The notes: a model not told the origin generated them from the letters alone. A DNA stretch of 64,000 nt from an uncultured Eubacteriales bacterium (GCA_964580435.1 CAZOKP010000003.1:3967-67966); one strand, 5' to 3'. Shown: positions 41,433 to 62,130, counted from the stretch's first letter. Made by a program: numbers and translations.

Positions 41433-41518
41433 TTCCCTGCTCATTTTTTTCCTGCAAAAGGGTCTTTTCCCCGTTTTGATTGCGGCGGCCCGCCGGGATA
41501 AAAAAGGTCACTTTTCTC

Positions 41519-41547
41519 TTGACATTCCCTGCCCTCTTCTGTATAAA
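41519..41547 (+). promoter_or_regulatory. Sigma70-like promoter (TTGACA-17-TATAAA) upstream of the multiheme cytochrome cluster
   Basis: Near-consensus -35 and -10 boxes, ~80 nt upstream of the proposed TTG start of the decaheme gene. Confidence 0.5.
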
Positions 41548-41626
41548 ATCTATCGAATTTATAGAACATATAAATTCTCTCAATAAAGAGACAAGATGGA
41601 CGAAGAATTCCTCAAGGAGGTTGGAG

Positions 41627-42487
41627 TTGCCAGCGACAATAAAAAGAAGGCGAAATAGAGTCTCCCTCACGACGTGCGCCCTCCTGGTTGTGGTTATTGC
41701 CGCCGTCGGGTTGGGGATAGCAGCCAGGCCGGCTCCTCAGGCAAAAGACGCCGAGACCTGCGGCACCTGCCACGAAGACCTGGTCAAGGCCTTTGCCTCC
41801 CGGCCTCATGCTGCTTTAGCCGGCAAGACCTGCACGGCCTGCCACGGCAGCGGAGAAAAACACATTGAAGAAGGGGGCAAAACCGGGATCTTTGCCTTTG
41901 CGGCCTCGGACCTGGTCAGCGAAAAAACCAACACGTGCCTGACCTGTCACGCCAAGGACAATCCCCGCTTCCTGACGAGCCCGCATGGAAAAGCTTCTCT
42001 CGACTGCACCACCTGCCACAGCGTTCACGGCGAGGAAGCCGCTTCTCCCCTGCTCAAGACCAAAGAGAACAAAGTCTGCGCCCGCTGCCATGAAGACATT
42101 TTTGCCCAGTTCCAGCTCAACGAACGGCACCGGCTTCAGGAAGGAATCCTGTCCTGCGCCACCTGCCACAACCCCCACGAACCTTCTGCAAGAACGATGC
42201 TGGGCGGGTTCAAACAGGAACAGTGCCTCAAATGCCACACCGACAAGGGCGGACCTTTCCTGTATGAGCATCAAGCCTCCCGCGTCGAGGGCTGCACTGC
42301 CTGCCATGAAGTCCATGGATCACCTAATCGGCATATGCTGACCCACCAGAGCGTCGCCGACCTCTGCTTCAGCTGCCACGCCGAAGCGCCGGCCTGGCAC
42401 GCCGACTTCAGTCCCGAAGGGACCAACTGCGTGAACTGTCATTCCGCCATCCATGGCTCGAACCTGGACAAGAGATTCCTGAAATAG
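41627..42487 (+). CDS. Periplasmic decaheme c-type cytochrome, MtrA/PioA/MtoA-like
   Basis: Ten CXXCH motifs in ~290 mature residues. The N-terminal signal/anchor follows the proposed TTG start, which has GGAGG 6 nt upstream. The track ORF starts at 41480. Size and haem count match MtrA-family electron conduits. A porin-like gene follows. Confidence 0.7.
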   Translation: MPATIKRRRNRVSLTTCALLVVVIAAVGLGIAARPAPQAKDAETCGTCHEDLVKAFASRPHAALAGKTCTACHGSGEKHIEEGGKTGIFAFAASDLVSEKTNTCLTCHAKDNPRFLTSPHGKASLDCTTCHSVHGEEAASPLLKTKENKVCARCHEDIFAQFQLNERHRLQEGILSCATCHNPHEPSARTMLGGFKQEQCLKCHTDKGGPFLYEHQASRVEGCTACHEVHGSPNRHMLTHQSVADLCFSCHAEAPAWHADFSPEGTNCVNCHSAIHGSNLDKRFLK

Positions 42488-42497
42488 GAGAAATAGG

Positions 42498-44363: not shown

Positions 44364-44381
44364 CACCTCGAGGAGGAGATC

Positions 44382-46840: not shown

Positions 46841-48076
46841 ATGAAGAAAGGATTTTTCCTGATCGCCTTGCTCAGCTTGCTTTTGCCTCCGGCTCTCCGC
46901 GGCCAGGAGTGCCTGGAATGTCATAAAAAGACTACGCCCAACATCGTCGGCGACTGGCTGGAAAGCAAGCACAGCAAAAATGACGTAACCTGTTCTATTT
47001 GCCACGGGGAAGAACACAAGACTGCTGCGGATTTTGCCAAAGCCAGGATCCCCACACCTGAAACGTGCGCTGCCTGTCACGAAGAACAGGTAAGCCAGTT
47101 CAAACGGGGCAAACACGCCTTGGCGTGGGCCGCCATGAAAGCCATGCCTACAGCCCATGCTCAGCCCGTCGCGATGATGGAGGGGATGAAGGGATGCGGC
47201 GGATGCCATAAGATCGGACTGAAAACCGAAGCGGAAATAGAAGAGCTCGATAAAGCCGGCGCTGGATTCGGTCGAGCCTCATGCGATGCCTGCCACACGC
47301 GGCATATTTTCTCCACCGCCGAAGCCCGGCAACCTCAAGCCTGCCAGACCTGTCACATGGGCTTCGATCATCCTCAATGGGAGATGTACTCCGCTTCCAA
47401 GCACGGCGTCCGCTTTCTCCTGAAACAAAACAAGACCCTCCCCGAGTCGGTTGCCGCGCCGACCTGCCAGACCTGCCATATGCAGGAGAAAAACCACGAA
47501 GTCCGGACCGCTTGGGGTTTTCTGGCCGTCCGGCTGCCCATGCCTGAGGACAAGCAATGGGCTGCAGATAGAGCAACCATCCTCCAGGCTCTCGGCGTTC
47601 TGGACCCTGCCGGTAACCCCACAGCAAGGCTCGATGTCGTCAAGGCAGCGGACGTCGCCCGTCTTAGTCAGGAAGCCTGGCAGAAAGAACGGGACAAAAT
47701 GATCGGCATCTGCAACCGTTGCCACAGCGTGAATTTTGCCAAAGCAGAGCTCGAAAAAGGCGACCAGATGATCAAAGAAGTGGACCATCTGATGGCGGAG
47801 GCCATCCTGACGGTCGCGTCTCTCTACAAAGACGGCGTTTTGCCGAAACCGGCGAACTACGCTTATCCGTTTCCCGATCTTCTGACCTTCCATGACGCGC
47901 CGACCGAAGTGGAGCAGAAGCTCTTCGTGATGTTTCTCGAACACCGGATGCGCGCCTTCCAGGGGACCTTCCACGCCAACCCGGACTATGCACTCTGGTA
48001 CGGTTGGAGCGAAATGAGGCGGTCGCTCACAGAGATCCAGACTCTCGCTGCGGCTAAGCGCAAAAACCAAACGTGA
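46841..48076 (+). CDS. Periplasmic octaheme c-type cytochrome
   Basis: Signal peptide and eight CXXCH motifs (CLECH, CSICH, CAACH, CGGCH, CDACH, CQTCH, CQTCH, CNRCH) in 411 aa. Confidence 0.7.
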   Translation: MKKGFFLIALLSLLLPPALRGQECLECHKKTTPNIVGDWLESKHSKNDVTCSICHGEEHKTAADFAKARIPTPETCAACHEEQVSQFKRGKHALAWAAMKAMPTAHAQPVAMMEGMKGCGGCHKIGLKTEAEIEELDKAGAGFGRASCDACHTRHIFSTAEARQPQACQTCHMGFDHPQWEMYSASKHGVRFLLKQNKTLPESVAAPTCQTCHMQEKNHEVRTAWGFLAVRLPMPEDKQWAADRATILQALGVLDPAGNPTARLDVVKAADVARLSQEAWQKERDKMIGICNRCHSVNFAKAELEKGDQMIKEVDHLMAEAILTVASLYKDGVLPKPANYAYPFPDLLTFHDAPTEVEQKLFVMFLEHRMRAFQGTFHANPDYALWYGWSEMRRSLTEIQTLAAAKRKNQT

Positions 48077-48145: not shown

Positions 48146-49501
48146 ATGAAGGCCCTGCTCAATTTTTTCACCTCGGTCCGGGTGGCCATCACCCTGCTGA
48201 TCATCCTCATCTGCGCCTCGATCATAGGAACGCTCATACCTCAAGGGAGAAGCGCGCAGGAATACCTCGTCCGCTACGGCCAGCTCGGCACCCTGCTGGA
48301 GCGGCTCCAGCTCACCAGGCTTTATCATTCCTTCTGGTTTATTGCACTGCTCGCGCTATTTTCCCTGAACATCATCGTCTGCACGCTCGAAAGGCTCTTT
48401 CCCAAATTCCGGCGGACCTTCCGGCCGAAGTTGGAGACCGAACCCAAGAACATTCTCGCTTTGAAAATCAGGGATAAATTCAAAGTCGGCCTGACAGTTG
48501 CCGAAACCAGGGAGATGGTCAAGAAGGAACTCACCCGCCGCCGCTACCGGCTTAGGGAAGCTGAGACCGAAACCAAGCACTGCTTTACCGCCCGGAAGAG
48601 GGACCTGGGCTGGTTCGGGTCCGATATCGTCCACTTGGGCATCCTCGTGATCCTAGCCGGAGGAATCGCCAGCGGACTCGGTGGTTACCGCAAAGACCTC
48701 ACCTTTAGTGAAGGCCAGACTCTTTCCGTTCCCGGGGCGAATTTCTCTGTCCGACTGGACAAGTTCGTCACGGAATACTATCCTAACGGAAGTGTCAAGG
48801 ACTGGAAAAGCCTCCTCACCGTGACTGAGGACGGAAAGCCCCTCTTCCAAAAAGCAGTCGAAGTCAATTATCCCCTAAATCATCAAGGCTACGTTTTTTA
48901 TCAAAGCGGCTACGGTTGGGATTGGGAGCATCCCTCGCTCGAAGTCTGGGTGAAGAAAAAGCAGAACCCGACCTATCTCAAAAAGGTCTGGCTGAAGGTC
49001 GGCGAGAAAACGGCCCTGGAAGGTGAATCCCTTGTGCTCAACGCGCTCCAGTTCATCCCTGATTTCGTCCTCGACGAAAAAAACCAGCCGGCCGCCCGCT
49101 CGTTGGAGCCAAACAATCCGGCGGCTTTCATCGAAGGCTGGGAGGGGCCCGAAAAGGTGTTCTCCGGCTGGATTTTCGCCAAGTTCCCCGATTTTTCACG
49201 CCTCCACTCGGGGGCCAAGGAACCGGATATTTCCCTCGAACTCAAGGACGTCCGGGCGCCCAATTACTCGGTCATCCACGTGGCCAAGGACCCGGGCGTA
49301 TCGCTCATCTGGAGCGGCTGCGTCCTGCTGATGGCGGGGCTCGTCCTGGCCTTTTACTGGCCGACGAGAGAATTGAAGATTATTCTGGAGGACAGCCAGG
49401 GGAAGACAGGCGTCACAGCCGGCGGAATTTCTATTAAGAGCCGGGAGGTCTTTCAAACGGAATTTGAAAGCATCATCAACTCTCTAAGGAAACGCAAATG
49501 A
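48146..49501 (+). CDS. resB: Cytochrome c biogenesis protein ResB/CcsB (System II)
   Basis: N-terminal TM segments (…VRVAITLLIILICASIIGTL…). A large periplasmic domain and a C-terminal TM helix follow. 451 aa. Overlaps ccsA by 4 nt. Confidence 0.8.
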   Translation: MKALLNFFTSVRVAITLLIILICASIIGTLIPQGRSAQEYLVRYGQLGTLLERLQLTRLYHSFWFIALLALFSLNIIVCTLERLFPKFRRTFRPKLETEPKNILALKIRDKFKVGLTVAETREMVKKELTRRRYRLREAETETKHCFTARKRDLGWFGSDIVHLGILVILAGGIASGLGGYRKDLTFSEGQTLSVPGANFSVRLDKFVTEYYPNGSVKDWKSLLTVTEDGKPLFQKAVEVNYPLNHQGYVFYQSGYGWDWEHPSLEVWVKKKQNPTYLKKVWLKVGEKTALEGESLVLNALQFIPDFVLDEKNQPAARSLEPNNPAAFIEGWEGPEKVFSGWIFAKFPDFSRLHSGAKEPDISLELKDVRAPNYSVIHVAKDPGVSLIWSGCVLLMAGLVLAFYWPTRELKIILEDSQGKTGVTAGGISIKSREVFQTEFESIINSLRKRK

Positions 49502-50316
49502 CTGAATCCACTTTTTTCCTGCTTGCTTTCATCCTTTATGCTTTGGCCGCTGCCTTCTACTTTTCCTATCTTTTCTCCAAAAAGGAAAACCGGGCCACGA
49601 TCGGTTTCGCCGTTGCCCTGGCGGGTCTGCTCATCCATACGCTGGCCTTAGTTTTTAGGACGGTCGAAAGCGGCCATGCGCCCTTCACCAACATGTACGA
49701 GTCCCTCTCCTTTCTGGCCTGGGCTTCTATCCTGGCCTTCATCATCATCGAGGCAAAATACAAGGTCAGGAGGCCGGGGGCTTACCTGCTGCTTATTGTG
49801 ATCGCCCTCATGGCCCTGGCGTCTTCGCCGCTCATGCCGAAAGAAGCCACTCCTCTTGTTCCGGCGCTGCAGAGTTACTGGCTCTGGCTGCATGTTTCCG
49901 TTACGCTTATCGGCGAGGCCTTTTTTGCCATCGCCTTCATCACCAGCATCATGTACCTTGCGGCCGACGCCAAAGAACGAAAAGGGAAAGCAGCGAAATC
50001 GGGGCTCACCGCGGAGAGACTTGACTCCATCAGCTACCGCACCATCGCGATCGGTTTTCCGCTCTTCACCTTGGGAGGGCTCGTCTTCGGCATGGTCTGG
50101 GCTTATAAGGCCTGGGGAACCTACTGGAGCTGGGACCCCAAGGAGGTTTGGAGCCTGATCACCTGGTTCGTCTTTGCCCTGTATCTCCACACCCGGATCG
50201 TCATGGGCTGGAAGGGCCGGCGTTCGGCCGCCATCGCCATCATCGGATTTCTCGCTGCCCTCTTCACTTACTTTGGCGTGAATTACCTGCTGGCGGGGCT
50301 GCACAGTTATGCCTGA
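49498..50316 (+). CDS. ccsA: Cytochrome c biogenesis protein CcsA/ResC (System II haem exporter-lyase)
   Basis: Polytopic membrane protein with a Trp-rich WGxxWxWD-type region (WAYKAWGTYWSWDPKEVW), 272 aa. Confidence 0.8.
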   Translation: MTESTFFLLAFILYALAAAFYFSYLFSKKENRATIGFAVALAGLLIHTLALVFRTVESGHAPFTNMYESLSFLAWASILAFIIIEAKYKVRRPGAYLLLIVIALMALASSPLMPKEATPLVPALQSYWLWLHVSVTLIGEAFFAIAFITSIMYLAADAKERKGKAAKSGLTAERLDSISYRTIAIGFPLFTLGGLVFGMVWAYKAWGTYWSWDPKEVWSLITWFVFALYLHTRIVMGWKGRRSAAIAIIGFLAALFTYFGVNYLLAGLHSYA

Positions 50317-50409: not shown

Positions 50410-52422
50410 ATGAAGATGCGGATAACCAAGAAAAGGACCCTTATCTCCCTTGCCGTTCTTGGCTTTCTCCTGCTTCTTTTCATCGCCGCAGCCGAAATCA
50501 CGTCCCAGTCCAGGTTCTGCTCCACCTGCCACTACATGAAACCCTTTTACCAGAGCTGGAAAACCTCCTCCCATGGCAACGTCCAGTGTAGTGTCTGTCA
50601 TTATCCTCCCGGATTGAGGTCCTTCTTCAGGGCGAAGGTGGAAGGATTGATGCAGCTGGGCCGGTATTGGACCAAGCTCTACCTCAAGTCCAGACCCTGG
50701 GCGGAGATTCCGGATGAAAGCTGTCTGCGTCAGGGATGCCACGACACCAGGCTTCTCGAGGGCCGAGTGAAATTCAAGGAGGTCATCTTCGACCACAAGA
50801 TCCACCTCGAGGACTTGAAAAGAGGAAAGAAACTTCGCTGCACGAGCTGCCACTCCCAGATCGTCCAGGGAGAGCATATTACTGTCACCGAGACTACGTG
50901 TTTTATCTGCCATTTTAAAAAGAGCGAACATTACCCCCAGATCGGCCAGTGCTCCCACTGTCACATCCAGCAAGATCTGGTCTCGAAACAAACCTCCCGG
51001 TTCAACCATACGGTCGTTTTCGAAAAAAAATTCAGCTGCGACAAATGTCACAGCCAGGTCGTCGTGGGCGACGGTGCCGTCCCCCGCGAGAACTGTTATA
51101 AATGTCATTTTGAGAAAGAGAGGCTGGATCAATATTCCGACACGGATTTAATCCATTCCACCCATATCACAGCCCATAAGATCGAGTGTAACCAATGCCA
51201 TTTGCAGATTCAGCACAAAATTGTCAAAGACATCGAGACCATCGCCGATTGCCGGACCTGCCACACGGGCTTCCATCAGGCCCAGAAGATTCTGTACACC
51301 GGCGAAGGCGGAAAAGGCATTGCCCATGCTCTGCCCAATGTCATGCTGGAAAAAGGGCTGAGCTGCAAGGGCTGCCACATGTTCCACGAGGAGGCGGGCG
51401 GAAAGTTGGTCAAGAGCGAGACCTCGATCTCGAAGGAGCAGGCCTGCGAATCCTGTCACGGAGCAGGATTCGCTCGAGTTCTCCGGTACTGGCAGGTCTC
51501 GACCGAGAAAAGGCTGAGCCAGATCAGGAGGATCTATCAAAGATCTTCCCAGGAAGTCGGGCTGAGCAAGAGCCCTAATCGGGAAAGGGCCAAGCCATTG
51601 CTTGACGATGCGGCCTTTAACATCGACGTCGTCGAGAGAGGCAAAAGCGTCCATAATATGGCCTACTCACAAGAGCTTCTTCAGGCCGCCATTGCCTATA
51701 TGGAGGAAGCCCTGCAGCTCGTCGGTTCTTCTTATAAGCCAGAAAAATTCCTGCCGGAAACAAAGGACATCCCCTCGCAATGCTCCCAGTGCCACGCCGG
51801 GATCGAAGAGATCAATGGCCGGGTCTTCGGGCTGTCCTTTCCCCACAAAACGCATGTCGTCGGCCAGAAAATGCAGTGTTCGACCTGCCATTCCAATGCG
51901 AAAAAACACGGTGAATTCATCGGCTCCAAAAAACAGTGCGCCACTTGTCATCATCAGGATATCAAGAAAGACTGCGGAAGCTGCCATATCCTCCAAAAGA
52001 CCCTCTATGTGGGAGGGACGTTAGATGGCTGGGAAGTCCCCAAGGATATGATGGCCGAGGCGAACGTCGGCTGTGCCGATTGCCACGCCCTGGACAAAGG
52101 TCAGATCCGCCCGGCCGACAGCTCCACGTGCATGAATTGCCATGAAGAGAGCTACACAAAGACGTTTGCGGAATGGCAGGATGCATATAAAAAGCAGCGG
52201 GATTCTCTCCTCACCAGCCTTGAAGTAAAGAGAAGGCTTAAGCTGCCCGAGGGAGACCGAGCCAAACTTGCCGAGGTCGAGCAGATGCTCAGAAAACTCG
52301 AGGACGACGGAAGCTCCTCCGTTCACAACTCCCAGTTCATCGAAGACCTGTTGACAAAACTTGAACTCCGGATAAAATCTATCCAGGAACAGCCGGCGCA
52401 TGAAGAGACGGACATTCGTTAA
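50410..52422 (+). CDS. Membrane-anchored multiheme cytochrome with NapC/NirT/NrfH-like N-terminus (17 CXXCH + 1 CX4CH)
   Basis: N-terminal TM helix followed by CSTCHYMKPFYQSWKTSSHGNVQCSVCH, as in NrfH/NapC quinol dehydrogenases. Fifteen further CXXCH motifs and one CLRQGCH follow. C-terminal coiled-coil-like tail. 670 aa. Confidence 0.7.
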   Translation: MKMRITKKRTLISLAVLGFLLLLFIAAAEITSQSRFCSTCHYMKPFYQSWKTSSHGNVQCSVCHYPPGLRSFFRAKVEGLMQLGRYWTKLYLKSRPWAEIPDESCLRQGCHDTRLLEGRVKFKEVIFDHKIHLEDLKRGKKLRCTSCHSQIVQGEHITVTETTCFICHFKKSEHYPQIGQCSHCHIQQDLVSKQTSRFNHTVVFEKKFSCDKCHSQVVVGDGAVPRENCYKCHFEKERLDQYSDTDLIHSTHITAHKIECNQCHLQIQHKIVKDIETIADCRTCHTGFHQAQKILYTGEGGKGIAHALPNVMLEKGLSCKGCHMFHEEAGGKLVKSETSISKEQACESCHGAGFARVLRYWQVSTEKRLSQIRRIYQRSSQEVGLSKSPNRERAKPLLDDAAFNIDVVERGKSVHNMAYSQELLQAAIAYMEEALQLVGSSYKPEKFLPETKDIPSQCSQCHAGIEEINGRVFGLSFPHKTHVVGQKMQCSTCHSNAKKHGEFIGSKKQCATCHHQDIKKDCGSCHILQKTLYVGGTLDGWEVPKDMMAEANVGCADCHALDKGQIRPADSSTCMNCHEESYTKTFAEWQDAYKKQRDSLLTSLEVKRRLKLPEGDRAKLAEVEQMLRKLEDDGSSSVHNSQFIEDLLTKLELRIKSIQEQPAHEETDIR

Positions 52423-52825
52423 CTTCTTCTTGGGAGGCTCTCTCGTCGGGACTCTAAGCTCGCTTCTTTATCCCATCATCCGCTATCTCATCCCCCCGCG
52501 TCAGGCTGAGGCGGTGGCAAAGAAAATTGCCGCCGCCAAAGTAGGAGAGTTAGCTCCCAACTCCGCGAAGCTGTTCAAATTCGGGTCCTCTCCCGCCCTC
52601 TTGATTAATACCGCCGAGGGCCAGCTCCGGGCTTTTTCCGCCGTGTGCACTCACCTAACCTGCACGGTCAGCTATGAGAGCGACACCAGCACGCTTTATT
52701 GTCCCTGTCATAACGGCCGGTTCGACCTCGCCGGGAATGTCATATCCGGGCCGCCGCCCCGCCCATTAGAGACTTATGAAATCGAGGTGGTCAGCGGCGA
52801 TATCCTTGTCTCTAAGAAAGCTTAG
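52400..52825 (+). CDS. Rieske [2Fe-2S] iron-sulfur protein (bc-complex type)
   Basis: N-terminal TM/Tat-like segment and Rieske boxes CTHLTC…CPCHNG. The start overlaps the preceding cytochrome gene by 23 nt. Confidence 0.8.
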   Translation: MKRRTFVNFFLGGSLVGTLSSLLYPIIRYLIPPRQAEAVAKKIAAAKVGELAPNSAKLFKFGSSPALLINTAEGQLRAFSAVCTHLTCTVSYESDTSTLYCPCHNGRFDLAGNVISGPPPRPLETYEIEVVSGDILVSKKA

Positions 52826-52826
52826 A

Positions 52827-53900
52827 ATGAGCCAGCTCATTAGGAACGCGGTCGCCTATCTCGAATCCAGATTCCAGTTTTCCGCCCTGGCCGAATTCGG
52901 CAAGAAAAAGAAAGTCCCGGAGCATAAATATTCTTTCTGGTATTACTTTGGCGGGCTGTGTCTTTTTCTTTTCTTTGTGCAGGTCGTTACGGGCATCCTC
53001 CTCCTTTTGTACTACACTCCCTCAGTCGATGCGGCTCATGAAAGCATTCAGTTCATCATGAGCCAGGTCAAATTCGGCTGGCTCATTCGTTCTGTCCACA
53101 GCTGGACGGCCAACATCCTGGTCGGAGCCATTTTCATCCACATGTTCAGCGCGTTCTTTCTCAAGGCCTACCGGCCGCCGCGGGATCTCACCTGGATCAG
53201 TGGATTCTTTCTCCTCATCTTCTTCCTGGCCTTCGGTTTCAGCGGCTATCTTCTTCCCTGGAATGAACTCTCGTTTTTCGCCACCCGGGTGGGAACGGAT
53301 ATCGCCGGCGTTATCCCTTACATTGGCAAAGCCCTCAAAACGTTCATTCTCGGAGGCCCGGAGGTTTCCGGCGCCACCCTGAGCCGGTTCTTCTGGCTTC
53401 ACGTGGCTGTTCTCCCGGCGATTGCGTTCGTCGTCCTGGGGATCCATATCTTCCTGGTCCAGGTCCTGGGGATGAGCAAGCCGATCGGGATCTCCGAGAG
53501 GAAGGAGATCTCTTTCTTCCCGACGTTCATCCTCAAGGACGCCCTGGTCTGGCTCCTCGTCTTGACTGCCATCGGCGTCCTCTGCGTCTTTTTCCCTTGG
53601 GAAGTGGGCCAAAAGGCCGACCCTTTCGCAGCGACGCCGATCGGCATCAAGCCCGAATGGTATTTCACCTTCATGTTCACGACACTCAAGCTCATCCCCC
53701 CTCACATTTTCTCCCTGGAAGGTGAGGTTCTGGCCATCCTGGGATTCATGCTGGGCGGATTGCTCTGGATGCTCGTTCCCTATCTTGACCGGAGGGCCGG
53801 CCGGGAGACGAAGAGTCCTGTTTTTTCAGGGGCAGGTTTTCTTATTCTGCTCTATATCATTGTCATGACGGCTCTGACCTACCTTGCACCCCGCATATAA
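52827..53900 (+). CDS. Cytochrome b of a bc-type complex (b6/subunit IV-like, fused)
   Basis: Polytopic with conserved haem-ligand His context (…SVHSWTANILVGAIFIHM…FGFSGYLLPWN…). The ATG at 52827 is 2 nt after the Rieske stop. The track ORF starts further upstream at 52776. Confidence 0.8.
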   Translation: MSQLIRNAVAYLESRFQFSALAEFGKKKKVPEHKYSFWYYFGGLCLFLFFVQVVTGILLLLYYTPSVDAAHESIQFIMSQVKFGWLIRSVHSWTANILVGAIFIHMFSAFFLKAYRPPRDLTWISGFFLLIFFLAFGFSGYLLPWNELSFFATRVGTDIAGVIPYIGKALKTFILGGPEVSGATLSRFFWLHVAVLPAIAFVVLGIHIFLVQVLGMSKPIGISERKEISFFPTFILKDALVWLLVLTAIGVLCVFFPWEVGQKADPFAATPIGIKPEWYFTFMFTTLKLIPPHIFSLEGEVLAILGFMLGGLLWMLVPYLDRRAGRETKSPVFSGAGFLILLYIIVMTALTYLAPRI

Positions 53901-53919: not shown

Positions 53920-55206
53920 TTGAAAGTGAAAGAGAACAAAGAACGGGACAAAAACCGGATGAGATCGAAGCTCGTCTCTGTTGTCTCATTTTTGTTCCTC
54001 CTGGCCCTTCCTCTCTCGCTCTTCGGCCAAAAAAATTCCTGCCTGGAATGCCACAAGGAGATGGATGATCAGAACCTGCGCGCTCCTGTGGATGGATTCG
54101 CGACGGATGTTCATCGGCAATTCGGTCTGGGCTGCCAGGACTGCCATGGAGGCAACCCCCTGCAGGATGACGTGGGACTGGCCAAGGACAAGTCCTTCAA
54201 GGGGGCGCCCGGGAAAGCCAAGGTGCCGGAATTCTGCGGCTCCTGCCATTCCAATTCCGAGTACATGAGGCGCTTCAATCCAAATGTACGCGTGGACCAG
54301 CTTCAGACCTACTGGACGAGCAAGCACGGCGAGCTCCTGAGAAAAGGCGACACGAATGTCGCCGTCTGCACGGACTGCCATGGAATTCATGGGATTCAAG
54401 CCTCCAATTTCCCCAAATCCTCGACCTTCGCCTGGAACATCCCCCAGACCTGCGGCCGTTGCCATTCCAGCCAGGATGTGATGAAGGCCTACGGCATTCC
54501 CGTCAACCAAGTCGACGATTATAAACACAGCGTCCATGCGACCGCCCTTTTCGATAAAAAGGACCTCTCGGCGCCGGTCTGCAATGACTGCCATGGAAAT
54601 CACGGCGCTGCACCCCCTCAAGTTACGTCAATCGCTTTTGTCTGCCGGCAGTGCCATCCGAGCGCCGGAGACCTCTTTACTCAAAGCCCTCACAAGGCTG
54701 CTTTCGACGGACTGGGGATTTCGGAATGCGAAGCCTGCCACGGCAATCACAAGATTCTCGCCCCCACCGACGAGATGCTCGCCGGAGGACGCAACGACGT
54801 CTGCAGCCAGTGCCATGACACCGGGACCAAGCCTTATGAGACCGGGCTCGAGATGAAGCGGAAGCTCTCGGGCTATGTGGCCACATTTCAAACCGCCGAA
54901 GACCTTCTCGAAAGAGCCGAAAAACAGGGCGTCGAGGTCAGCGATCCTCGGTTCAAGCTCCAGGAGGCCTCCACGGCCTTGATCCTCGTCCGGAACCTGA
55001 CCCACGGCCTTTCCCTCACGGACATGGAAGCGAAGCTCGCTGAAGGGGACAACGTCATCGCCGAGGTCAAAGCGCTCGGCGGCGCCGCTTTGAAGGAAGC
55101 GAAATTCCGCAAGACAGGCCTTGTCATCACCACCGTCTTCATCTTCCTTCTCGCCCTGGCCCTTTATTTCAAGATCCGCGAGCTCCAGTCGCGACCCAAG
55201 GCCTAG
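53920..55206 (+). CDS. Nonaheme c-type cytochrome with C-terminal transmembrane anchor
   Basis: Nine CXXCH motifs and a C-terminal hydrophobic helix (GLVITTVFIFLLALALYF). The real start may be the internal Met near 53950, which is followed by a signal peptide. It follows the Rieske/cyt b genes directly. Confidence 0.7.
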   Translation: MKVKENKERDKNRMRSKLVSVVSFLFLLALPLSLFGQKNSCLECHKEMDDQNLRAPVDGFATDVHRQFGLGCQDCHGGNPLQDDVGLAKDKSFKGAPGKAKVPEFCGSCHSNSEYMRRFNPNVRVDQLQTYWTSKHGELLRKGDTNVAVCTDCHGIHGIQASNFPKSSTFAWNIPQTCGRCHSSQDVMKAYGIPVNQVDDYKHSVHATALFDKKDLSAPVCNDCHGNHGAAPPQVTSIAFVCRQCHPSAGDLFTQSPHKAAFDGLGISECEACHGNHKILAPTDEMLAGGRNDVCSQCHDTGTKPYETGLEMKRKLSGYVATFQTAEDLLERAEKQGVEVSDPRFKLQEASTALILVRNLTHGLSLTDMEAKLAEGDNVIAEVKALGGAALKEAKFRKTGLVITTVFIFLLALALYFKIRELQSRPKA

Positions 55207-55447: not shown

Positions 55448-55476
55448 TTGACAATTTTCCGGGACTTCTCTAAAAT
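55448..55476 (+). promoter_or_regulatory. Sigma70 consensus-like promoter (TTGACA-17-TAAAAT)
   Basis: Seen in the 313-nt gap before the tetraheme cytochrome gene. It probably heads the 55520-59349 operon. Confidence 0.5.
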
Positions 55477-55519: not shown

Positions 55520-56041
55520 ATGAAAAAGATCATTGTGCTTATCGTCATCATAGTTGCGATTTTGCTCATCAATCTTTTGGGCCAGAACTTCACCTATGTG
55601 GGATCGGCCAAGTGTGCGATCTGCCACAAGACGGAAACACAGGGCCAGCAGTATCCGATCTGGCAGAAGTCCAAGCATTCCATGTCCTTCGCCGCGCTCA
55701 GCTCTCCTGAGGCTGCTCCAAAAGCCCAGGCCGCCGGAGTGCAGAACCCGGCGGAAAGCCCCCAGTGTCTCAAATGCCATGCACCCCTCTTCGAGAAGGC
55801 CGCCGAACTCAAGGCCGAGGGCGTCACCTGCGAGGTCTGCCACGGCCCGGGAAGCGAATACAAAAAACTCACCATCATGAAAGACAAAGCCCTGGCCCAG
55901 AAGAACGGCCTGGTCCTCTATGAATCTTCGGATGCCGCTAAAAAACACTGCCTGACCTGCCATGAGAATGCTCACGGCACGAGCTTCGATTACGCGGCAG
56001 CCTGGGAAAAGATCAAACACGACAAACCGGCCGCAAAATAG
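55520..56041 (+). CDS. Small tetraheme c-type cytochrome (periplasmic, 174 aa)
   Basis: ATG with GGAGG 4 nt upstream, signal/anchor MKKIIVLIVIIVAILLINLLG, four CXXCH motifs. The track ORF 55121..56041 is over-extended at the 5-prime end. Confidence 0.7.
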   Translation: MKKIIVLIVIIVAILLINLLGQNFTYVGSAKCAICHKTETQGQQYPIWQKSKHSMSFAALSSPEAAPKAQAAGVQNPAESPQCLKCHAPLFEKAAELKAEGVTCEVCHGPGSEYKKLTIMKDKALAQKNGLVLYESSDAAKKHCLTCHENAHGTSFDYAAAWEKIKHDKPAAK

Positions 56042-56050
56042 ACCGCATTT

Positions 56051-57331
56051 TTGGCGATCATTTCCTGGATGCGAAAACCTGAGGTTGGCGTTTTATTCCT
56101 TCTGATTCTCGGGGCCTTCCTGTGGGCCGGTCCAGAAAAGACCCCTTCTTCGAACGCCCAGTGCTTGGCCTGTCACGGTTCCCAAGCCGCGGTCAGCGAA
56201 AAACTCAGGATCAATGAAAAGAACTTCCTCGGGTCGGCGCACGCATCCCTCGCCTGCACCGATTGCCACATGATCCAGCCGGGAGAGAGGGAAGGCGAGA
56301 TCCCGCATAGAAAGACTCTTCCGGATGTCAATTGCACAGCCGCCTGTCATCGTGAAAGCGGCCGGATCGGCACCGGACTGACTCCTCTTTCCTACCCCGA
56401 CAGCGTCCACGGCCGAGCCTATCTCGAAAGAGGAGTCAGGGAAGTGGCCAAGTGCTGGGACTGTCACGGAAAGCACAATATCAGGCCCGTTTCTGATCCC
56501 GAGTCCTCAGTCAGCAGGAAGAACATCCCCCTGACATGCTCGGCCTGTCATGAGGATATGCACGTCGTCATCAAGTACAACATCCACAGCGAAATGCCCT
56601 ATCACGAATACATGAAGAGCGTCCACGGCAAGGCCCTTTTTGAGAAAGGGCTTGTCCAATTCGCCGCCGTCTGCACCGACTGCCACGGCGTCCATGACAT
56701 CAAAGGCGTCGGCGAGCCCCATCTGATGGCCAAGCAGCCCCAGACCTGCGGCCGCTGCCACGAGCTCATCTTTGACGAGTACAAGCAGAGCCTCCACGGC
56801 CAGCAGGCCCTCGGCGGGAATGTTGATGCTCCGTTCTGTGTCGACTGCCACGGAGAACACGGCATCGCCTCGCCTAAGGAAGAAGGCTCCCCTACTTCTG
56901 TCAACAAGGTCCTCGATACCTGCTCGGCCTGCCACGCCCGGCCGGAGATCATGCAGAAATACGGCGTTCCCGAAGACCGGATTGCCACGTTTATCGACAG
57001 CCTGCACGGGATCGCCGTCGGGTTTGGCTACAAAGCCGCGGCCAATTGCACGAGCTGCCACGGCGTTCACGATATCAGGCCGGCCTCTGATCCCCTGTCC
57101 AAAATCAGCCCGGCCAACCTGCGGAAGACCTGCGGACAGCCCAGCTGCCATCCGAATATGCCAGAAAAAATTGCCACGGCCAAGATTCATATCGGCGCTG
57201 CTCAAAAAAACCCCGCCGCTCTCTTTTATGTTCAAAGGGTGCTCCTCATCCTGGTCATCGCCGTTCTCGTCATCACCGTGCTCTGGTTCATTCCCGGTTT
57301 CATCAAAAAAATGAGGCTCTTGAAAAAGTAG
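56051..57331 (+). CDS. Multiheme c-type cytochrome (9 CXXCH + CX3CH + CX4CH) with C-terminal TM anchor
   Basis: Signal peptide and repeated HG…C..CHG.H.I….DP.S…N…TC..CH units. It is a paralog of the next gene and of 53920. C-terminal helix VLLILVIAVLVITVLWFIPGFI. Confidence 0.7.
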   Translation: MAIISWMRKPEVGVLFLLILGAFLWAGPEKTPSSNAQCLACHGSQAAVSEKLRINEKNFLGSAHASLACTDCHMIQPGEREGEIPHRKTLPDVNCTAACHRESGRIGTGLTPLSYPDSVHGRAYLERGVREVAKCWDCHGKHNIRPVSDPESSVSRKNIPLTCSACHEDMHVVIKYNIHSEMPYHEYMKSVHGKALFEKGLVQFAAVCTDCHGVHDIKGVGEPHLMAKQPQTCGRCHELIFDEYKQSLHGQQALGGNVDAPFCVDCHGEHGIASPKEEGSPTSVNKVLDTCSACHARPEIMQKYGVPEDRIATFIDSLHGIAVGFGYKAAANCTSCHGVHDIRPASDPLSKISPANLRKTCGQPSCHPNMPEKIATAKIHIGAAQKNPAALFYVQRVLLILVIAVLVITVLWFIPGFIKKMRLLKK

Positions 57332-57335
57332 CGCC

Positions 57336-58580
57336 ATGGGTCAAGGCAAAGCTGTCTTTCTCGGGGTCGTCTTTCTTTTCTTCGGCGTGGCCTCGCCCTT
57401 TCTCCTCTCCCAGTCGAACGAGGACTGCCTCACCTGCCACGGAGACGCCGAGCTTAAGTCCGAAGCAGGGAAATCCCTTTTCTTGGATAGCGAGAAATTC
57501 CTGGCCTCAAGCCACGGCAAGGCGGAAATCTCCTGCGTCGATTGCCACGCCGACCTCGCCAAAATTAAGGATTTTCCGCACTCTTCTCCGTTGAAACCCG
57601 TTGATTGCAGCCGGTGTCATGAAGCGGCCGCCCGAGAATTCCAGAAAAGCGCCCATTATGCGGCCACGGGGACCGGGGAAAACGCTCTGGCTGTCAGCTG
57701 CAAGGACTGTCATGGAACGCATGACATCAAGGGCAAGTCAGATTATGACTCAGCCATCTTCCCCATCAACCTTCCCTCCACCTGCGAGAAATGTCATCTC
57801 GAGAGGGTGGCGGCCAAGAAAGGACCTGGTTTCGTCGGTCAATACAGGGAGAGCGTTCACTTCAAAGCCCTCGAAAAATCCGGGCTGACGATGTCGGCCA
57901 ACTGCAGCAACTGCCACGGAGCCCATGACATCAAAAAAGTTTCCGACCCGCTCGCCCCGGTCGCCCGCAAGAACATCATCAAGACCTGCGGAATGTGCCA
58001 CGTCGGTATAGAACGAGACTATCTCGAGGGAGTGCACGGCAAGGACTATGTCAAAGGCATCAAGGATGTTCCCGTCTGCACCGACTGCCACAGCGAGCAC
58101 GATATCCTCTCGCCGCAGGACCTGAACTCCACGGTATATGCAACCAAGGTTGCGGAGGTCTGTTCCCGCTGCCATGACAACATGGCTTTGAGCCGGGAGT
58201 ACGGCTTCCTGACTTCGCGCCTGAAAACTTACAACCAAACCTTCCACGGGACCGCCTCGAGATACGGGGAAACGCGCGTGGCCAATTGCGCCTCCTGCCA
58301 CGGTTTCCACGGCATCCGGCCATCTTCGGACCCGAAATCCTCCATTAACCCGGAAAACCTGCCCAAAACCTGCGGGAAATGCCATCCCGGCGCCAGCCGC
58401 CACTTCGCTGAGGGCCAGGTTCACGTCATCCCCGAAGAAATTGTCACGGCCAAATATAGGTCTGCCCATCTTGTCAAGAACATCTATATTATCGTGATTT
58501 CGATTATTATCACGGTCTTCCTCATTTTTATCGCCGCGGACCTGTTCAGACGGATTATTAGAAAGGAAAAACATGGCTAG
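57336..58580 (+). CDS. Undecaheme c-type cytochrome with C-terminal TM anchor
   Basis: Eleven canonical CXXCH motifs and the same repeat unit. C-terminal helix IYIIVISIIITVFLIFIAADLF. It overlaps the next gene by 8 nt. Confidence 0.7.
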   Translation: MGQGKAVFLGVVFLFFGVASPFLLSQSNEDCLTCHGDAELKSEAGKSLFLDSEKFLASSHGKAEISCVDCHADLAKIKDFPHSSPLKPVDCSRCHEAAAREFQKSAHYAATGTGENALAVSCKDCHGTHDIKGKSDYDSAIFPINLPSTCEKCHLERVAAKKGPGFVGQYRESVHFKALEKSGLTMSANCSNCHGAHDIKKVSDPLAPVARKNIIKTCGMCHVGIERDYLEGVHGKDYVKGIKDVPVCTDCHSEHDILSPQDLNSTVYATKVAEVCSRCHDNMALSREYGFLTSRLKTYNQTFHGTASRYGETRVANCASCHGFHGIRPSSDPKSSINPENLPKTCGKCHPGASRHFAEGQVHVIPEEIVTAKYRSAHLVKNIYIIVISIIITVFLIFIAADLFRRIIRKEKHG

Positions 58581-59349
58581 TTCTCCCCTTGTCCGCGACG
58601 ACGAGATCTTCCTGCGGATGAATCTCGCCGAACGGATCCAGCACTATCTCCTCATCGCCACGTTCTTTCTGCTCATGGTCACGGGGATTCCCCTTTTCTT
58701 CTACGAATTCAAGGCCTTCAAGTGGTTCTTCCCGACAGAGCAGGTTTTCTATATCCGGGGGATCATCCACAGGATTGCCGCGGTCGTTTTGATCATAAAT
58801 CTCATTTGGCACCTCTTTTACGCGACTCTGACGGCCCGGGGCCGGAATAACCTCAAGGTCATGATCCCCAAATTCCGCGACGGCAAAGACGCCTTTGAAC
58901 TTTTCTGGTACAACGTCGGGTTAACCCGCTTCCTCTACAGGCTGGGGTTCTTTCAGAAATTCTTCGAAACCCACCCCTACTGGCTTTTCCAGAACCCGCC
59001 CCTTTTCGGGCGCTATAATTTTATCGAGAAGTTCGAATACTGGGCCGTGGGCTGGGGCTCGGTCGTGATGATCATCAGCGGCTTCTTCATGTGGAATGTG
59101 GAGCTTTCGCTCCGCTTCTTCCCCCTCTGGGTCCATGACATCCTGGTCATGGTCCACGGCTACGAAGCCCTGCTGGCCTTTCTGGCGGTCATCATTTGGC
59201 ACATGTACAATGTCCATCTCAACCCCGAGGTCTTCCCCATGAGCAAAATCTGGCTGAACGGCAAAATCACGGGGAAAGAGCTCCGGCTGCTCCATCCTCT
59301 CGAATACCAGAAGATTGTCGAGGAACGGAAGAAAAGCCTCCGCCCGTAA
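58573..59349 (+). CDS. Dihaem b-type cytochrome, membrane subunit (FdnI/HydC/cytochrome b561-like, PF01292-type)
   Basis: Four to five TM helices with His pairs in characteristic positions (RIQHYLL…, IIHRIAAV…, HDILVMVHGYEA…, WHMYNVH). It is the last gene of the cytochrome operon. Confidence 0.6.
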   Translation: MASSPLVRDDEIFLRMNLAERIQHYLLIATFFLLMVTGIPLFFYEFKAFKWFFPTEQVFYIRGIIHRIAAVVLIINLIWHLFYATLTARGRNNLKVMIPKFRDGKDAFELFWYNVGLTRFLYRLGFFQKFFETHPYWLFQNPPLFGRYNFIEKFEYWAVGWGSVVMIISGFFMWNVELSLRFFPLWVHDILVMVHGYEALLAFLAVIIWHMYNVHLNPEVFPMSKIWLNGKITGKELRLLHPLEYQKIVEERKKSLRP

Positions 59350-59495
59350 GCCGGCACTTCTCGACTTCCTGTTAGGAACAGCCTTTTTGTTTTCGTGACA
59401 GGACCCTGTTTCCATTCCCAATGCTCACGGAAACGGGATGCGAGATCTCTCTATTAAATCTATAGTTTTTATATAAATAGTAGTATAATTTTTCC

Positions 59496-60860
59496 ATGGC
59501 TGGGGCATTCCCTCTCCGGTCCGGCTCTCAGATCGCCGTCATCGGCGGCGGCCCGGCCGGTTCCTTCTTCGCCCATTTCGCCCAAAAACAGGCCAGGAAA
59601 AAAGGGCTGGCGGTTTCAATCGTCATCTTTGACGGCAAAGACTTTCTCCAGCGCGGGCCCAGCGGCTGCAATCTCTGCGCGGGCGTGATTTCCGGAAGCC
59701 TGGAAACGAAATTGCGCGAAGAAGGCCTCTTTCTGCCGGAGGGCAGGATCATCAACCGCATCGAGGGGTACTGCCTCCATCTGGAAAAGGAAACGCTTCG
59801 CCTGTCCTGTGCCGAAAACGGAAATCGCTCTATCGCCACTGTCTTTCGGGGAAACGGCCCGCGTTATTCCCATTTCCCTCAGATCATCAGTTTTGATGAT
59901 TATCTCCTTAGGTGCGCCCAGGACAGCGGGGCCAAGGTCATCTCTCAGCCCGTTTGGAAAATCCTGCTCCCCCAAAACCCGGCTGATCGCATCGCTCTTT
60001 TCTTCGGCGGGCGGAGCTCGCTCGAGCGCTATGAGGCGGACCTGGTTGTCGGAGCCTTCGGAGTGAACACGCATCTTTTTAAGATCGTCCAAAGCCTGGG
60101 CATCGATTATCGCCCGCCTTCCACTTTGAAGACGTTCCAGGCAGAATTCAAGCTGGGTCGGTCGGAGATAGAAAAACACTTTCGAAACGACATCCATGTC
60201 TATCTGCTGCGCTCCAAGGCCATCCGCTATGCCACCGTCATCCCTAAAGGCGATTATGTCACCGTAAGCATTATTGGAAAGAAGGATGCTACGCCTGAGC
60301 TCGCGAGAGAATTCTTCGCCCTTCCGGAAATCTGGCGGGTTTTTCCTCCCTCCAAGCCTCAATGCCTCTGCTTCCCCAAGATCGCCGTTTCGGCAGCAAG
60401 AAACCCGTTCTCCAACCGGCTGGTCCTAATCGGAGACGCGAGCTTCTCCCGACACTACAAAAACGGCATTGAATCCGCGTTCCTGACGGCCATGCTGGCT
60501 GCGAGTGCGGCTTTTGGTCAAGGCGTCAATGCCGCCTCCTTCCGCCGCGCGTTCTATGGACCTGCGAAAAAGCTGATCGTCCGGGATAATATCTACGGCC
60601 GTGTGCTCATCCGTCTCCATGACGTCCTGACGTCGGTCTCCCTTCTGTCCCATTCGCATTTCTCCCTGGCCGGCAAAGAGGGTCATGCGGCCGCCCCAAG
60701 AAAGCTCAGGCGAATCCTCTGGAGCATGTTCACAGGGGATATTCCCTTCCGCAGGATCTTCGCCCTCACCCTCGACATGCGATTGCAAATTGCCCTTTTC
60801 CTGAATACAATAAGGCATCTTATCCGCATGATGAAACATTTTCTCACCGGCTCCGCCTAA
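59496..60860 (+). CDS. FAD-dependent oxidoreductase (geranylgeranyl reductase/FixC-like family)
   Basis: N-terminal IAVIGGGPAGSFFA dinucleotide motif, 454 aa. Paralogous to the next gene. Confidence 0.6.
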   Translation: MAGAFPLRSGSQIAVIGGGPAGSFFAHFAQKQARKKGLAVSIVIFDGKDFLQRGPSGCNLCAGVISGSLETKLREEGLFLPEGRIINRIEGYCLHLEKETLRLSCAENGNRSIATVFRGNGPRYSHFPQIISFDDYLLRCAQDSGAKVISQPVWKILLPQNPADRIALFFGGRSSLERYEADLVVGAFGVNTHLFKIVQSLGIDYRPPSTLKTFQAEFKLGRSEIEKHFRNDIHVYLLRSKAIRYATVIPKGDYVTVSIIGKKDATPELAREFFALPEIWRVFPPSKPQCLCFPKIAVSAARNPFSNRLVLIGDASFSRHYKNGIESAFLTAMLAASAAFGQGVNAASFRRAFYGPAKKLIVRDNIYGRVLIRLHDVLTSVSLLSHSHFSLAGKEGHAAAPRKLRRILWSMFTGDIPFRRIFALTLDMRLQIALFLNTIRHLIRMMKHFLTGSA

Positions 60861-60870
60861 AGGGAAGCCT

Positions 60871-62130
60871 ATGACATCGCCTCCTCAGATGCTGACTGAA
60901 AAGAGCACGATTGTCATCATCGGCTGCGGCCCGGCAGGCGCAAGCTGCGCCATCAAGTTGAAAAAAATGACTGATGACGCGGGGATAAGACCCCGTATCG
61001 TCGTCTATGAAGGGAAGCCTCTCGAGAAGAAAAGCCACTACAACCAGTGCCTGGGGGTCCTTTCTCCCCCTTTAGAAAAAATCCTCGAGAGCGACCTGGG
61101 GCTTCCCTTCCCTTGGACGATCGTTCAAAGGAAGATCGATGGGTATCTCATCCATGCCGGACATAGCGTCATCAAACTGGGCGGGGAGCACGCTCCCTCC
61201 TATGCTTGCCGCAGAGTCGAGTTCGACAATTACCTCTTCCAAAAGGCCAAGGAAGCCGGCGTCGAGATTGTCCCGGCGCGTGTCATTGATATGGACTTTT
61301 CAACCGACGGCGTCATGGTCTACAGCGAAAGCAATAATCTCAAAGCGGACGTCATTATCGGAGCGTTCGGGCTGGACGACGGCATGGCCAAGATCTTCGA
61401 AAGAGTCACGGATTACCGGCAGCCCCGATTTCTTTCTTCGGTCGTCACGAAGATCCATCCCGGAGAAGAAGCCATGGCCACTTTCGGTAACTCTATCCAT
61501 GCCTTTCTCCCCTCCTCGCTGCCCTCCGTCGAATTCGGGGCTATAACACCCAAAGCCAACCATTTGAGCATCAATATCGCCGGACAAAAAGTCGATGCAG
61601 TGATGATGGACAGGTTTCTCCGGCTTGATGAAGTCAGGGAGTCCATGCCGGGGCCGCTCCAGGACAATCTCCCTGAACTCGCCTATTTCAAGGGCAAGTT
61701 CCCCACGCTTCCCGCCAGAGCGCCGGTCGGTCATCGATATGTGATGATCGGCGATGCCGCCGGACTCAACCGCCCTTTCAAGGGCAAAGGAATCAATTCA
61801 GCCGTCATCACGGGGATAAAAGCAGCTCAGGCCATCGCTTCAAAAGGCCTTACCCGCTCCGCCCTCGAGGGATACCTGGAAGACTGCTGCGAGCTCACAG
61901 ATGATATCCCCTATGGAAGGGCACTCAGAGCTCTAACCATCCAGTTCTCCAAATACGGATTGATGGAGGGAGTGCTGGAAGCAGCCAGGAATGAGCCCGC
62001 CCTAAGAAAGGCCATGTTCAATGTTGTCTCCGGCCAGGAGACCTACAAGAAAACGTGGCGAGAGACAAGGAATGTCGGGCTTCTTTTCCGGGTATTTTTT
62101 GCGTCTCTTCGCCACGCCCTGAAAAAATGA
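60871..62130 (+). CDS. FAD-dependent oxidoreductase (geranylgeranyl reductase/FixC-like family), paralog
   Basis: IVIIGCGPAGASCA motif, 419 aa, co-linear similarity to 59496..60860. Confidence 0.6.
   Translation: MTSPPQMLTEKSTIVIIGCGPAGASCAIKLKKMTDDAGIRPRIVVYEGKPLEKKSHYNQCLGVLSPPLEKILESDLGLPFPWTIVQRKIDGYLIHAGHSVIKLGGEHAPSYACRRVEFDNYLFQKAKEAGVEIVPARVIDMDFSTDGVMVYSESNNLKADVIIGAFGLDDGMAKIFERVTDYRQPRFLSSVVTKIHPGEEAMATFGNSIHAFLPSSLPSVEFGAITPKANHLSINIAGQKVDAVMMDRFLRLDEVRESMPGPLQDNLPELAYFKGKFPTLPARAPVGHRYVMIGDAAGLNRPFKGKGINSAVITGIKAAQAIASKGLTRSALEGYLEDCCELTDDIPYGRALRALTIQFSKYGLMEGVLEAARNEPALRKAMFNVVSGQETYKKTWRETRNVGLLFRVFFASLRHALKK

Follow-up and report, generated by a model that had tools for sequence, protein, structure and literature searches.

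We report that a 64,000-nucleotide stretch of DNA from an uncultured Eubacteriales bacterium (GCA_964580435.1, CAZOKP010000003.1:3967-67966; hereafter the window, with positions counted from its first letter) carries at 55520-59349 a four-gene cytochrome operon. The operon probably encodes an inner-membrane quinol:cytochrome c oxidoreductase of the CbcL/MtrH/MtoC type in a split and duplicated form, with a subunit layout like that of CbcBA, and in the same reading two variant motifs (CX3CH and CX4CH) in one of its subunits are genuine haem sites with two thioether bonds each. To our knowledge, no other step of extracellular electron transfer is as poorly understood, Geobacter and Shewanella apart, as the exit of electrons from the quinone pool. 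The Aminicenantes, to which the closest relatives of the operon belong and to which we assign the source bacterium itself, abound in sediments and the subsurface and are mostly described as fermentative, and the genomes compared here suggest that they carry a complete and conserved envelope-spanning cytochrome island. Moreover, the CbcL-type unit appears to exist in this island in a naturally split and duplicated state, which provides separable subunits for biochemistry. In the literature on Aminicenantes and multihaem cytochromes we found no account of this cluster. The locus reveals neither a new kind of system nor new haem chemistry and is only moderately surprising; it should be useful for annotation and as a biochemical target.

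All four genes are on the + strand. A tetrahaem c-type cytochrome (55520-56041; 173 amino acids (aa), with a hydrophobic N-terminal signal or anchor and four CXXCH motifs) is followed by two cytochromes with 11 haem sites and a C-terminal transmembrane (TM) anchor each, here called MHC11a (56051-57331; 426 aa) and MHC11b (57336-58580; 414 aa), and by a predicted four-helix dihaem cytochrome b of the FdnI/HydC type (58573-59349; 258 aa). In total 26 c-type haems are encoded. Upstream of the tetrahaem gene, whose ATG at 55520 is preceded by the ribosome-binding site GGGAGGA, lies a sigma-70-like promoter, TTGACA-17-TAAAAT (55448-55476, + strand), that matches the consensus at 11 of 12 positions. 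In most Aminicenantes loci (e.g. L001, L002, L004, L010, L012, L014-16, L018, L019 and L021; L001-L029 are our labels for related genome loci) the orthologous tetrahaem gene has a TTGACA-N17-TA(A/G)AAT-type element in the corresponding upstream position, and the element itself is kept between related genomes while the spacer around it has diverged. Four nucleotides (nt) separate the MHC11a stop from the MHC11b ATG, and the cytochrome b gene starts within the end of the MHC11b gene, with an overlap of 8 nt. Because of this gap, this overlap and the conserved promoter-like element, the four genes are best read as one transcription unit, distinct from the Rieske/cytochrome b unit upstream, in keeping with the four-gene operon of the original prediction, which had been made from the sequence of the window. 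A weak hairpin (CTGTT-AGG-AACAG) followed by the T-run CTTTTTGTTTT can be read from the sequence at 59369-59393 (+ strand) and possibly marks the end of the unit; this is uncertain, the hairpin falling below the criteria of the terminator scanner. Long antisense open reading frames (e.g. 56507-57337 and 57750-58574, both on the - strand) were taken to be non-coding and to shadow the G+C-rich cytochrome genes.

MHC11a and MHC11b are 37% identical over approximately 380 aa (E=2e-72), and all 11 haem motifs are in register in their alignment. Both have a signal-like N-terminal segment and a single strongly hydrophobic C-terminal TM helix (aa 387-421, nt 57209-57313, in MHC11a; aa 376-409, nt 58461-58562, in MHC11b; both + strand), so the two C-terminally anchored paralogues of about 11 haems that had been predicted are present as described. 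The anchors have conserved residues of their own, T..WF in MHC11a and YI..I...I.....FI..D...R in MHC11b, and no conserved His was found in either of them. MHC11b has 11 CXXCH motifs and 22 Cys; MHC11a has nine CXXCH motifs together with CTAACH and CGQPSCH, and all of its 22 Cys lie inside these 11 motifs. Since the closest orthologue of MHC11a is 420 aa long, its start may be the ATG at 56069 (M7) instead of that at 56051. According to the AlphaFold (AF2) model, MHC11a ends in a long C-terminal helix (residues 389-425; pLDDT 81.9, pTM 0.72). A PDB sequence search with MHC11b returned nothing at E<=1e-3, and neither did a Foldseek search of the PDB with the MHC11a model, where the best matches were chains of the hydroxylamine oxidoreductase family with TM-scores of at most 0.30; we take this model-based resemblance as generic haem packing and not homology.

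A two-haem unit, C..CH[GS].H.I...[DP]..S...C..CH, is repeated three times in MHC11a and three times in MHC11b and occurs once in the protein encoded upstream at 53920-55206 (+ strand), here called MHC9. The island's five remaining multihaem proteins lack it, and none of 2000 residue shuffles contained it. MHC9 has nine haems, a helical stalk and a C-terminal TM helix, is 28-32% identical to MHC11a and MHC11b (i.e. a third, more distant paralogue), and all 17 of its orthologues carry nine CXXCH motifs. A repeat common to these three genes had been proposed originally, and the sharing and the paralogy of MHC9 stand; MHC9 has nine haems and not 11, however, lies upstream of the operon interval and is the last gene of the Rieske/cytochrome b unit, another transcription unit.

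The two variant sites of MHC11a are CTAACH at haem 3 (CX3CH; 56333-56350, aa 95-100, + strand), which aligns with CSRCH of MHC11b, and CGQPSCH at haem 11, the last one (CX4CH; 57131-57151, aa 361-367, + strand), which aligns with CGKCH and sits approximately 20 residues before the TM helix. The original prediction, which had singled out both positions as non-canonical where the paralogue reads CXXCH and had pointed to orthologues as a check, is borne out by this alignment and by the conservation of the motifs. In a search of 5.8 billion proteins, 120 homologues of MHC11a were listed, with 55-86% identity and from Candidatus Aminicenantes metagenome bins; CX4CH is retained in 120 of the 120 and CX3CH in all except one or two. 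The residues between the Cys vary (CTAVCH, CTSSCH and CTEKCH; CGQADCH, CGQPKCH and CGQVNCH) while the C, C and H are constant, and T96, which follows the first Cys of CX3CH, G362, Q363 and P368 are nearly invariant. Expressed as the number of residues between the two Cys of each haem site, the pattern 22322222224 was found in all 21 full-length genome-derived MHC11a orthologues, whereas the MHC11b orthologues from the genome loci are entirely canonical (19 of 19). Among the MHC11a orthologues, ten His other than the 11 proximal ones are invariant and one more, H380, is nearly so; these eleven are enough for bis-His ligation of 11 haems. An assembly or frameshift artefact is excluded by the recurrence of the motifs in more than 100 independent assemblies. 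In MHC11a the variant sites hold fixed positions, and the haem of one of them is the membrane-proximal one.

Both motif types have a precedent in MmcA of Methanosarcina acetivorans, where haem peptides on CXXXCH and CXXXXCH were detected by mass spectrometry (PMC10153276). MmcA resembles MHC11a in having one motif of each kind beside canonical CXXCH in one polypeptide, and peptide mass spectrometry found all of its sites to bear haem; it differs in that it is unrelated, has seven haems, belongs to the archaeal Rnf complex and is matured by another system, and it is a precedent for the motif chemistry only. Since both motifs have already been seen to carry haem there, the sites in MHC11a are not a new kind of site, nor do they represent new haem chemistry. 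Genome surveys, moreover, count CX3CH and CX4CH among the haem sites as a matter of routine (PMC5566968; bioRxiv 10.1101/2024.01.05.574438); a survey that counts CXXCH only would score MHC11a as a nine-haem protein with a broken chain. That such a score would be correct, i.e. that the two motifs have degenerated to bind no haem, or haem through a single thioether, and that MHC11a is a nine-haem protein with gaps in its chain, strikes us as very improbable. It would fit the model of MHC11a in one respect, the residues just after CX3CH (aa 103-112) being the only region with a pLDDT below 50, and it has against it that both Cys and the His are kept in essentially all of the listed orthologues while their neighbours change, that the 11 motifs use up all 22 Cys with eleven non-motif His conserved alongside, and that MmcA carries haem on both kinds of motif. 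Taken together, alignment and orthologue conservation support the original suggestion of non-canonical haem attachment, and CTAACH and CGQPSCH are very probably genuine haem sites, at which we infer covalently bound haem.

The product of the last gene matches PF01292 with 44.6 bits (cut-off 30.1), and its orthologues all carry this domain. Four His (H24, H66, H195 and H210; codons at 58642, 58768, 59155 and 59200, + strand) are invariant in 23 genome-derived and 45 database sequences and are proposed as the axial ligands. In a HMMER alignment with FdnI of E. coli (1kqf_C, E=9e-6) these four pair with four conserved His of FdnI, which we take to be the axial ligands H18, H57, H155 and H169, and the conserved Asn149 pairs with an FdnI Asn, presumably the quinone-site Asn110. 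The AlphaFold model (pLDDT 75.9) has long helices at residues 18-42, 55-86, 150-174 and 185-215, and with this model Foldseek returned 1kqf_C as the only significant PDB match (E=6.6e-5, probability 1.00, TM-scores 0.59/0.69). The PF01292-like dihaem membrane cytochrome b of the original prediction is therefore recovered by domain score, axial His and fold alike, and the sequence and model comparisons assign the protein to the four-helix FdnI/HydC type, with predicted binding of two b haems and quinone. A true formate dehydrogenase gamma subunit, the name given to the orthologues by JGI, was ruled out: the score against the equivalog TIGR01583 is 53.4 bits, below the cut-off of 115.85, and FdnGH genes are missing. 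Compared with the membrane part of E. coli formate dehydrogenase N (Fdn-N; 1kqf), the likeness lies in the four-helix dihaem fold, in which the four axial His and the conserved Asn align, and in a partner subunit (FdnH in Fdn-N) that is tethered by a single C-terminal TM helix; the differences are that FdnG and FdnH genes are not found here, that the partner bears c haems and not iron-sulphur clusters, and that the cytochrome b proteins of Aminicenantes have approximately 22 extra residues between TM2 and TM3. This segment (TRFLYRLGFFQKFFETHPYWLF, aa ~117-140) is missing in the fused Calditrichota relatives, in the Armatimonadota relative and in the cassette relatives, all described below.

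The tetrahaem protein scores 49.8 bits against PF13435 (cut-off 20.8) and 45.6 bits against NF043010, the equivalog for Nitrosomonas c554 (CycA), which has a cut-off of 400. These scores point to a distant member of the c554 family, with a putative role as an electron shuttle. The gene is syntenic in at least 20 genomes.

That the 11-haem proteins and the cytochrome b belong together is suggested by natural fusions between them. In two Calditrichota genomes (L023 and L024) a single, all-canonical 11-haem homologue is fused via a TM helix to a cytochrome b of the same type (701 and 675 aa). An exhaustive HMMER search of 1.84 billion cluster representatives gave 3496 relatives (P-numbers below), of which the best 150 were inspected; about half of these 150 (~70) have 7-22 haems fused to cytochrome b, the commonest fusion among them having 11 haems and 640-700 aa. 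The fused relatives are from Terriglobia, Armatimonadota, Eisenbacteria and unclassified bins, and, as proteins from metagenome-assembled genomes of uncultured organisms, they are named "cytochrome b/b6 domain-containing", "cytochrome c3 family" or "formate dehydrogenase gamma". Such fusions of c- and b-type parts argue for a physical c-b unit.

The trio of a-type gene, b-type gene and cytochrome b gene is also present outside Aminicenantes. In L026 and L027 an a-type gene with both CX3CH and CX4CH is followed by a b-type gene, and in L028/L029, which have a Por_Secre_tail neighbour, a wholly canonical a-type gene is followed by a b-type gene, a cytochrome b gene, a fused 11-haem-b gene and an orthologue of the 18-haem cytochrome discussed below. 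In a neighbour-joining tree the a-type and b-type proteins form two distinct clades, a and b. Because of this separation and the occurrence of the trio outside Aminicenantes, the a/b duplication must predate Aminicenantes, and the variants either arose within the a clade or were lost there once. Only the a clade has CX3CH at haem 3, and outside Aminicenantes, too, it was seen nowhere else. CX4CH at the last haem (CG[QKSR]xxCH, often with a Pro) is also found in at least three other branches, including the fused relatives P0155, P0209, P0164, P0227 and P0264, and judged from these sequences CX4CH at the membrane-proximal haem is a recurrent change in the family.

Some Aminicenantes have an extra cassette between the MHC9 and tetrahaem genes (L017 5977-8758, L003 1526-3474 and L020 59-1216), a position that is occupied by a 313-nt spacer in the window. 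It encodes an approximately 19-haem protein fused to an FdnI-like cytochrome b with an additional C-terminal TM helix, and its haem spacing is identical, haem for haem, to that of Cabys_319 of Caldithrix abyssi, a CbcL-family member with 19 haems (Table S2, PMC6295460).

In the CbcL/MtrH/MtoC family, 3-23 N-terminal haem motifs, a TM helix and a HydC/FdnI-like dihaem cytochrome b are present in one polypeptide (PMC6295460). The family occurs in 15 phyla, among Fe(III) reducers and Fe(II) oxidisers, its genes often adjoin mtrAB/mtoAB (Zhong & Shi 2018, PMC6295460), and it has been proposed to work in both directions (PMC6295460). The operon is like this family in combining multihaem c-type domains, a TM helix and an FdnI-like cytochrome b, with mtrAB-like genes nearby. 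Moreover, the haem spacing of the catalogued 11-haem members is near-identical to that of MHC11a and MHC11b (positions from Table S2, PMC6295460); for Oter_2603 of Opitutus terrae, which has 11 haems, the listed positions are 56, 93, 114, 144, 172, 216, 244, 274, 299, 333 and 361, and in MHC11b the haems are at 31, 67, 91, 122, 150, 190, 218, 248, 276, 318 and 346. The last four haems of CbcL from G. sulfurreducens (GSU0274) are spaced 28, 43 and 28 residues apart, compared to 28, 42 and 28 in MHC11a/b. As to TM helices, the b subunit has four and MHC11a and MHC11b contribute one each, which makes six spread over three chains, where the CbcL type has six in a single one. Among the fused relatives, those of Calditrichota are without the sixth helix and the L017 cassette has it. 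What distinguishes the operon from the family is that the c and b parts are encoded by separate genes, that the c part is duplicated and that one paralogue has a fixed CX3CH and a fixed CX4CH.

CbcBA (GSU0594/GSU0593) of Geobacter sulfurreducens pairs a multihaem cytochrome, anchored by a C-terminal TM helix, with a dihaem cytochrome b of four TM helices that is encoded next to it (bioRxiv 10.1101/2021.04.15.440034), and it is similar to the operon in subunit layout, gene order and its proposed inner-membrane role in extracellular electron transfer. CbcBA is regulated by sigma-54/BccR, in contrast to the sigma-70-like promoter found here. An orthologue of CbcBA was ruled out on the haem number and on the pattern of three plus one His. 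PDB searches with the operon proteins turned up no CbcL- or CbcBA-type complex. One Armatimonadota genome (L025 10028-11649) encodes a seven-haem relative that ends in a C-terminal TM helix and, directly after it, an FdnI-like cytochrome b of 254 aa, an arrangement that corresponds to CbcBA in haem count and layout.

On this basis a route for electrons can be proposed. The two b haems of the cytochrome b would be held by H24/H210 and H66/H195, and the protein would have its site for electron exchange with menaquinol on the cytoplasmic side, as its match to FdnI including Asn149 suggests. By way of these two haems electrons would cross the membrane and reach haem 11, the membrane-proximal one, in both anchored 11-haem cytochromes, whose C-terminal helices may dock on the b subunit in the manner of the FdnH helix in Fdn-N. 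Bis-His haem chains would next lead the electrons into the periplasm and to the tetrahaem protein, and their further path would run over the MtrA-like decahaem protein, the barrel and the outer decahaem protein encoded upstream. The likely direction is outward, i.e. oxidation of quinol for the reduction of extracellular acceptors. With the quinol site on the cytoplasmic side, such outward transfer would conserve little or no energy, in parallel to the neighbouring Rieske/cytochrome b complex, which would be the energy-conserving branch. For CbcBA it has been reported that little energy is conserved, at low acceptor potentials (bioRxiv 10.1101/2021.04.15.440034). The CX3CH of haem 3 and the CX4CH of haem 11 would be enlarged loops that became fixed in the a-type paralogue after the a/b duplication.

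Several points weigh against a quinol oxidase of this type. The likeness to the CbcL family appears to be one of architecture, haem spacing and the shared FdnI-type domain, and the genes are split, where the family has a single polypeptide. CbcA has seven haems and is the single c subunit of its complex, whereas two c subunits with 11 haems each are encoded here, and CbcB has three conserved His with the fourth ligand proposed to come from CbcA, whereas the present b subunit has all four. As to direction, FdnI works as a quinone reductase in Fdn-N of E. coli, and homologues of CbcL/MtoC occur in Fe(II) oxidisers. The main rival to outward quinol oxidation is the same complex run inward, in which the multihaem chains take electrons from a donor outside the cell or in the periplasm, such as Fe(II), a cathode-like mineral or a partner cell, and the b subunit reduces menaquinone at the cytoplasmic face, generating proton-motive force as the arm of a redox loop. 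The conserved Asn that aligns with FdnI fits a quinone site on the cytoplasmic side, and the tetrahaem protein belongs to the c554 family, the founding member of which carries electrons towards the quinone pool. The Fe(II)-oxidising homologues and the bidirectionality proposed for the family (PMC6295460) point the same way. We nevertheless regard inward flow as rather unlikely: the characterised relatives CbcL and CbcBA act outward, no terminal reductase or oxidase able to use such quinol was seen within the window, and the adjacent genes resembling pyruvate:ferredoxin oxidoreductase and ADP-forming acetyl-CoA synthetase point to a fermentative or organotrophic lifestyle in need of electron sinks.

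The neighbourhood lends itself to yet another explanation, which we judge improbable, that the 11-haem and tetrahaem proteins are periplasmic acceptors of the upstream Rieske/cytochrome b6 complex, as substitutes for cytochrome c1/f, with the FdnI-like cytochrome b reduced to a scaffold or a minor enzyme. About 20 genomes keep strictly to the order Rieske, b6, MHC9, tetrahaem, MHC11a, MHC11b, cytochrome b, and it is MHC9, a paralogue of MHC11a/b, that closes the Rieske unit. The conserved promoter, however, divides the two units, the a-b-cytochrome b trio of L028/L029 has no adjacent Rieske gene, and the widespread covalent fusion to FdnI-type cytochromes marks the b subunit as the primary partner. 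Within the preferred reading as a split, CbcL-type quinol oxidase, a bolder version can be formulated, although we consider it unlikely: MHC11a and MHC11b might form an obligate asymmetric heterodimer on one FdnI-type b subunit, a two-lane periplasmic wire of 22 haems, in which the enlarged CGxxxCH loop of haem 11 in the a subunit, as a specialised contact, sets the distance or the potential of the b-to-c hand-off and CX3CH at haem 3 marks a side exit to the tetrahaem partner. If true, the two-residue insertion at the last haem (often CGxPxCH), which has at least four independent origins in the family, fused CbcL-type proteins included, would be a recurrent tuning of the operating potential of a quinol oxidase.

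The operon lies inside an 18-kb island that has 81 c-haem sites. A gene order common to about 22 Aminicenantes genomes comprises the genes for a beta-barrel, a 773-aa decahaem protein, an octahaem protein, ResB, CcsA, an 18-haem NapC/NirT-like cytochrome, a Rieske protein, a cytochrome b6-like protein, MHC9, the tetrahaem protein, MHC11a, MHC11b and cytochrome b, and it often ends in two flavoproteins of the geranylgeranyl-reductase family. In the window, an Rrf2 regulator (40974-41432) precedes the porin-cytochrome genes, which are all on the + strand and encode an MtrA-like decahaem protein (41480-42487; 335 aa, with the size and haem count of MtrA), an outer-membrane beta-barrel without Cys (42498-44363; 621 aa) and a second decahaem protein (44382-46703; 773 aa). 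From its gene content the segment at 41480-46703, with an MtrA-sized decahaem protein, a barrel and a 773-aa decahaem protein, looks like a porin-cytochrome conduit, and the predicted gene content of the island as a whole is that of an envelope-spanning pathway for extracellular electron transfer.

Further on the + strand follow genes for an octahaem protein (46841-48076; PF13447, Multi-haem_cyto, 99.5 bits), for ResB (48146-49501) and CcsA (49498-50316; TIGR03144), both of System II maturation, for the 18-haem NapC/NirT-like cytochrome (50410-52422), for the Rieske protein (52400-52825) and for the cytochrome b6-like protein (52776-53900; 374 aa), the last three being syntenic in Aminicenantes. 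The octahaem gene separates the conduit genes from resB; its product may not be a wire but an octahaem-family enzyme. The ResB and CcsA genes sit directly upstream of the cytochromes with variant motifs. In the 18-haem cytochrome the third haem site is also a CX4CH (CLRQGCH, 50722-50742), which is kept in 13 of 13 Aminicenantes orthologues and reads CLRGGCH in the orthologue of the unrelated locus L028. The Rieske and cytochrome b6-like genes overlap by 50 nt, and the 374-aa protein joins b6-like and subunit-IV-like parts; it scores 205 bits with the model for ExtP, which is from a Geobacter selenite/tellurite operon, below the cut-off of 290.

On the 3' side of the operon two paralogous flavoproteins of the geranylgeranyl-reductase family are encoded at 59496-62130; they score below the family cut-offs and are kept by several related genomes, and a role in saturating the side chain of a quinone or isoprenoid is only a guess. 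Finally, just upstream of the island, genes on the - strand (36122-40656) encode an ADP-forming acetyl-CoA synthetase-like protein and a two-subunit 2-oxoacid:ferredoxin oxidoreductase (pyruvate:ferredoxin oxidoreductase-like), which fits a fermentative organism that would gain from an external electron sink.

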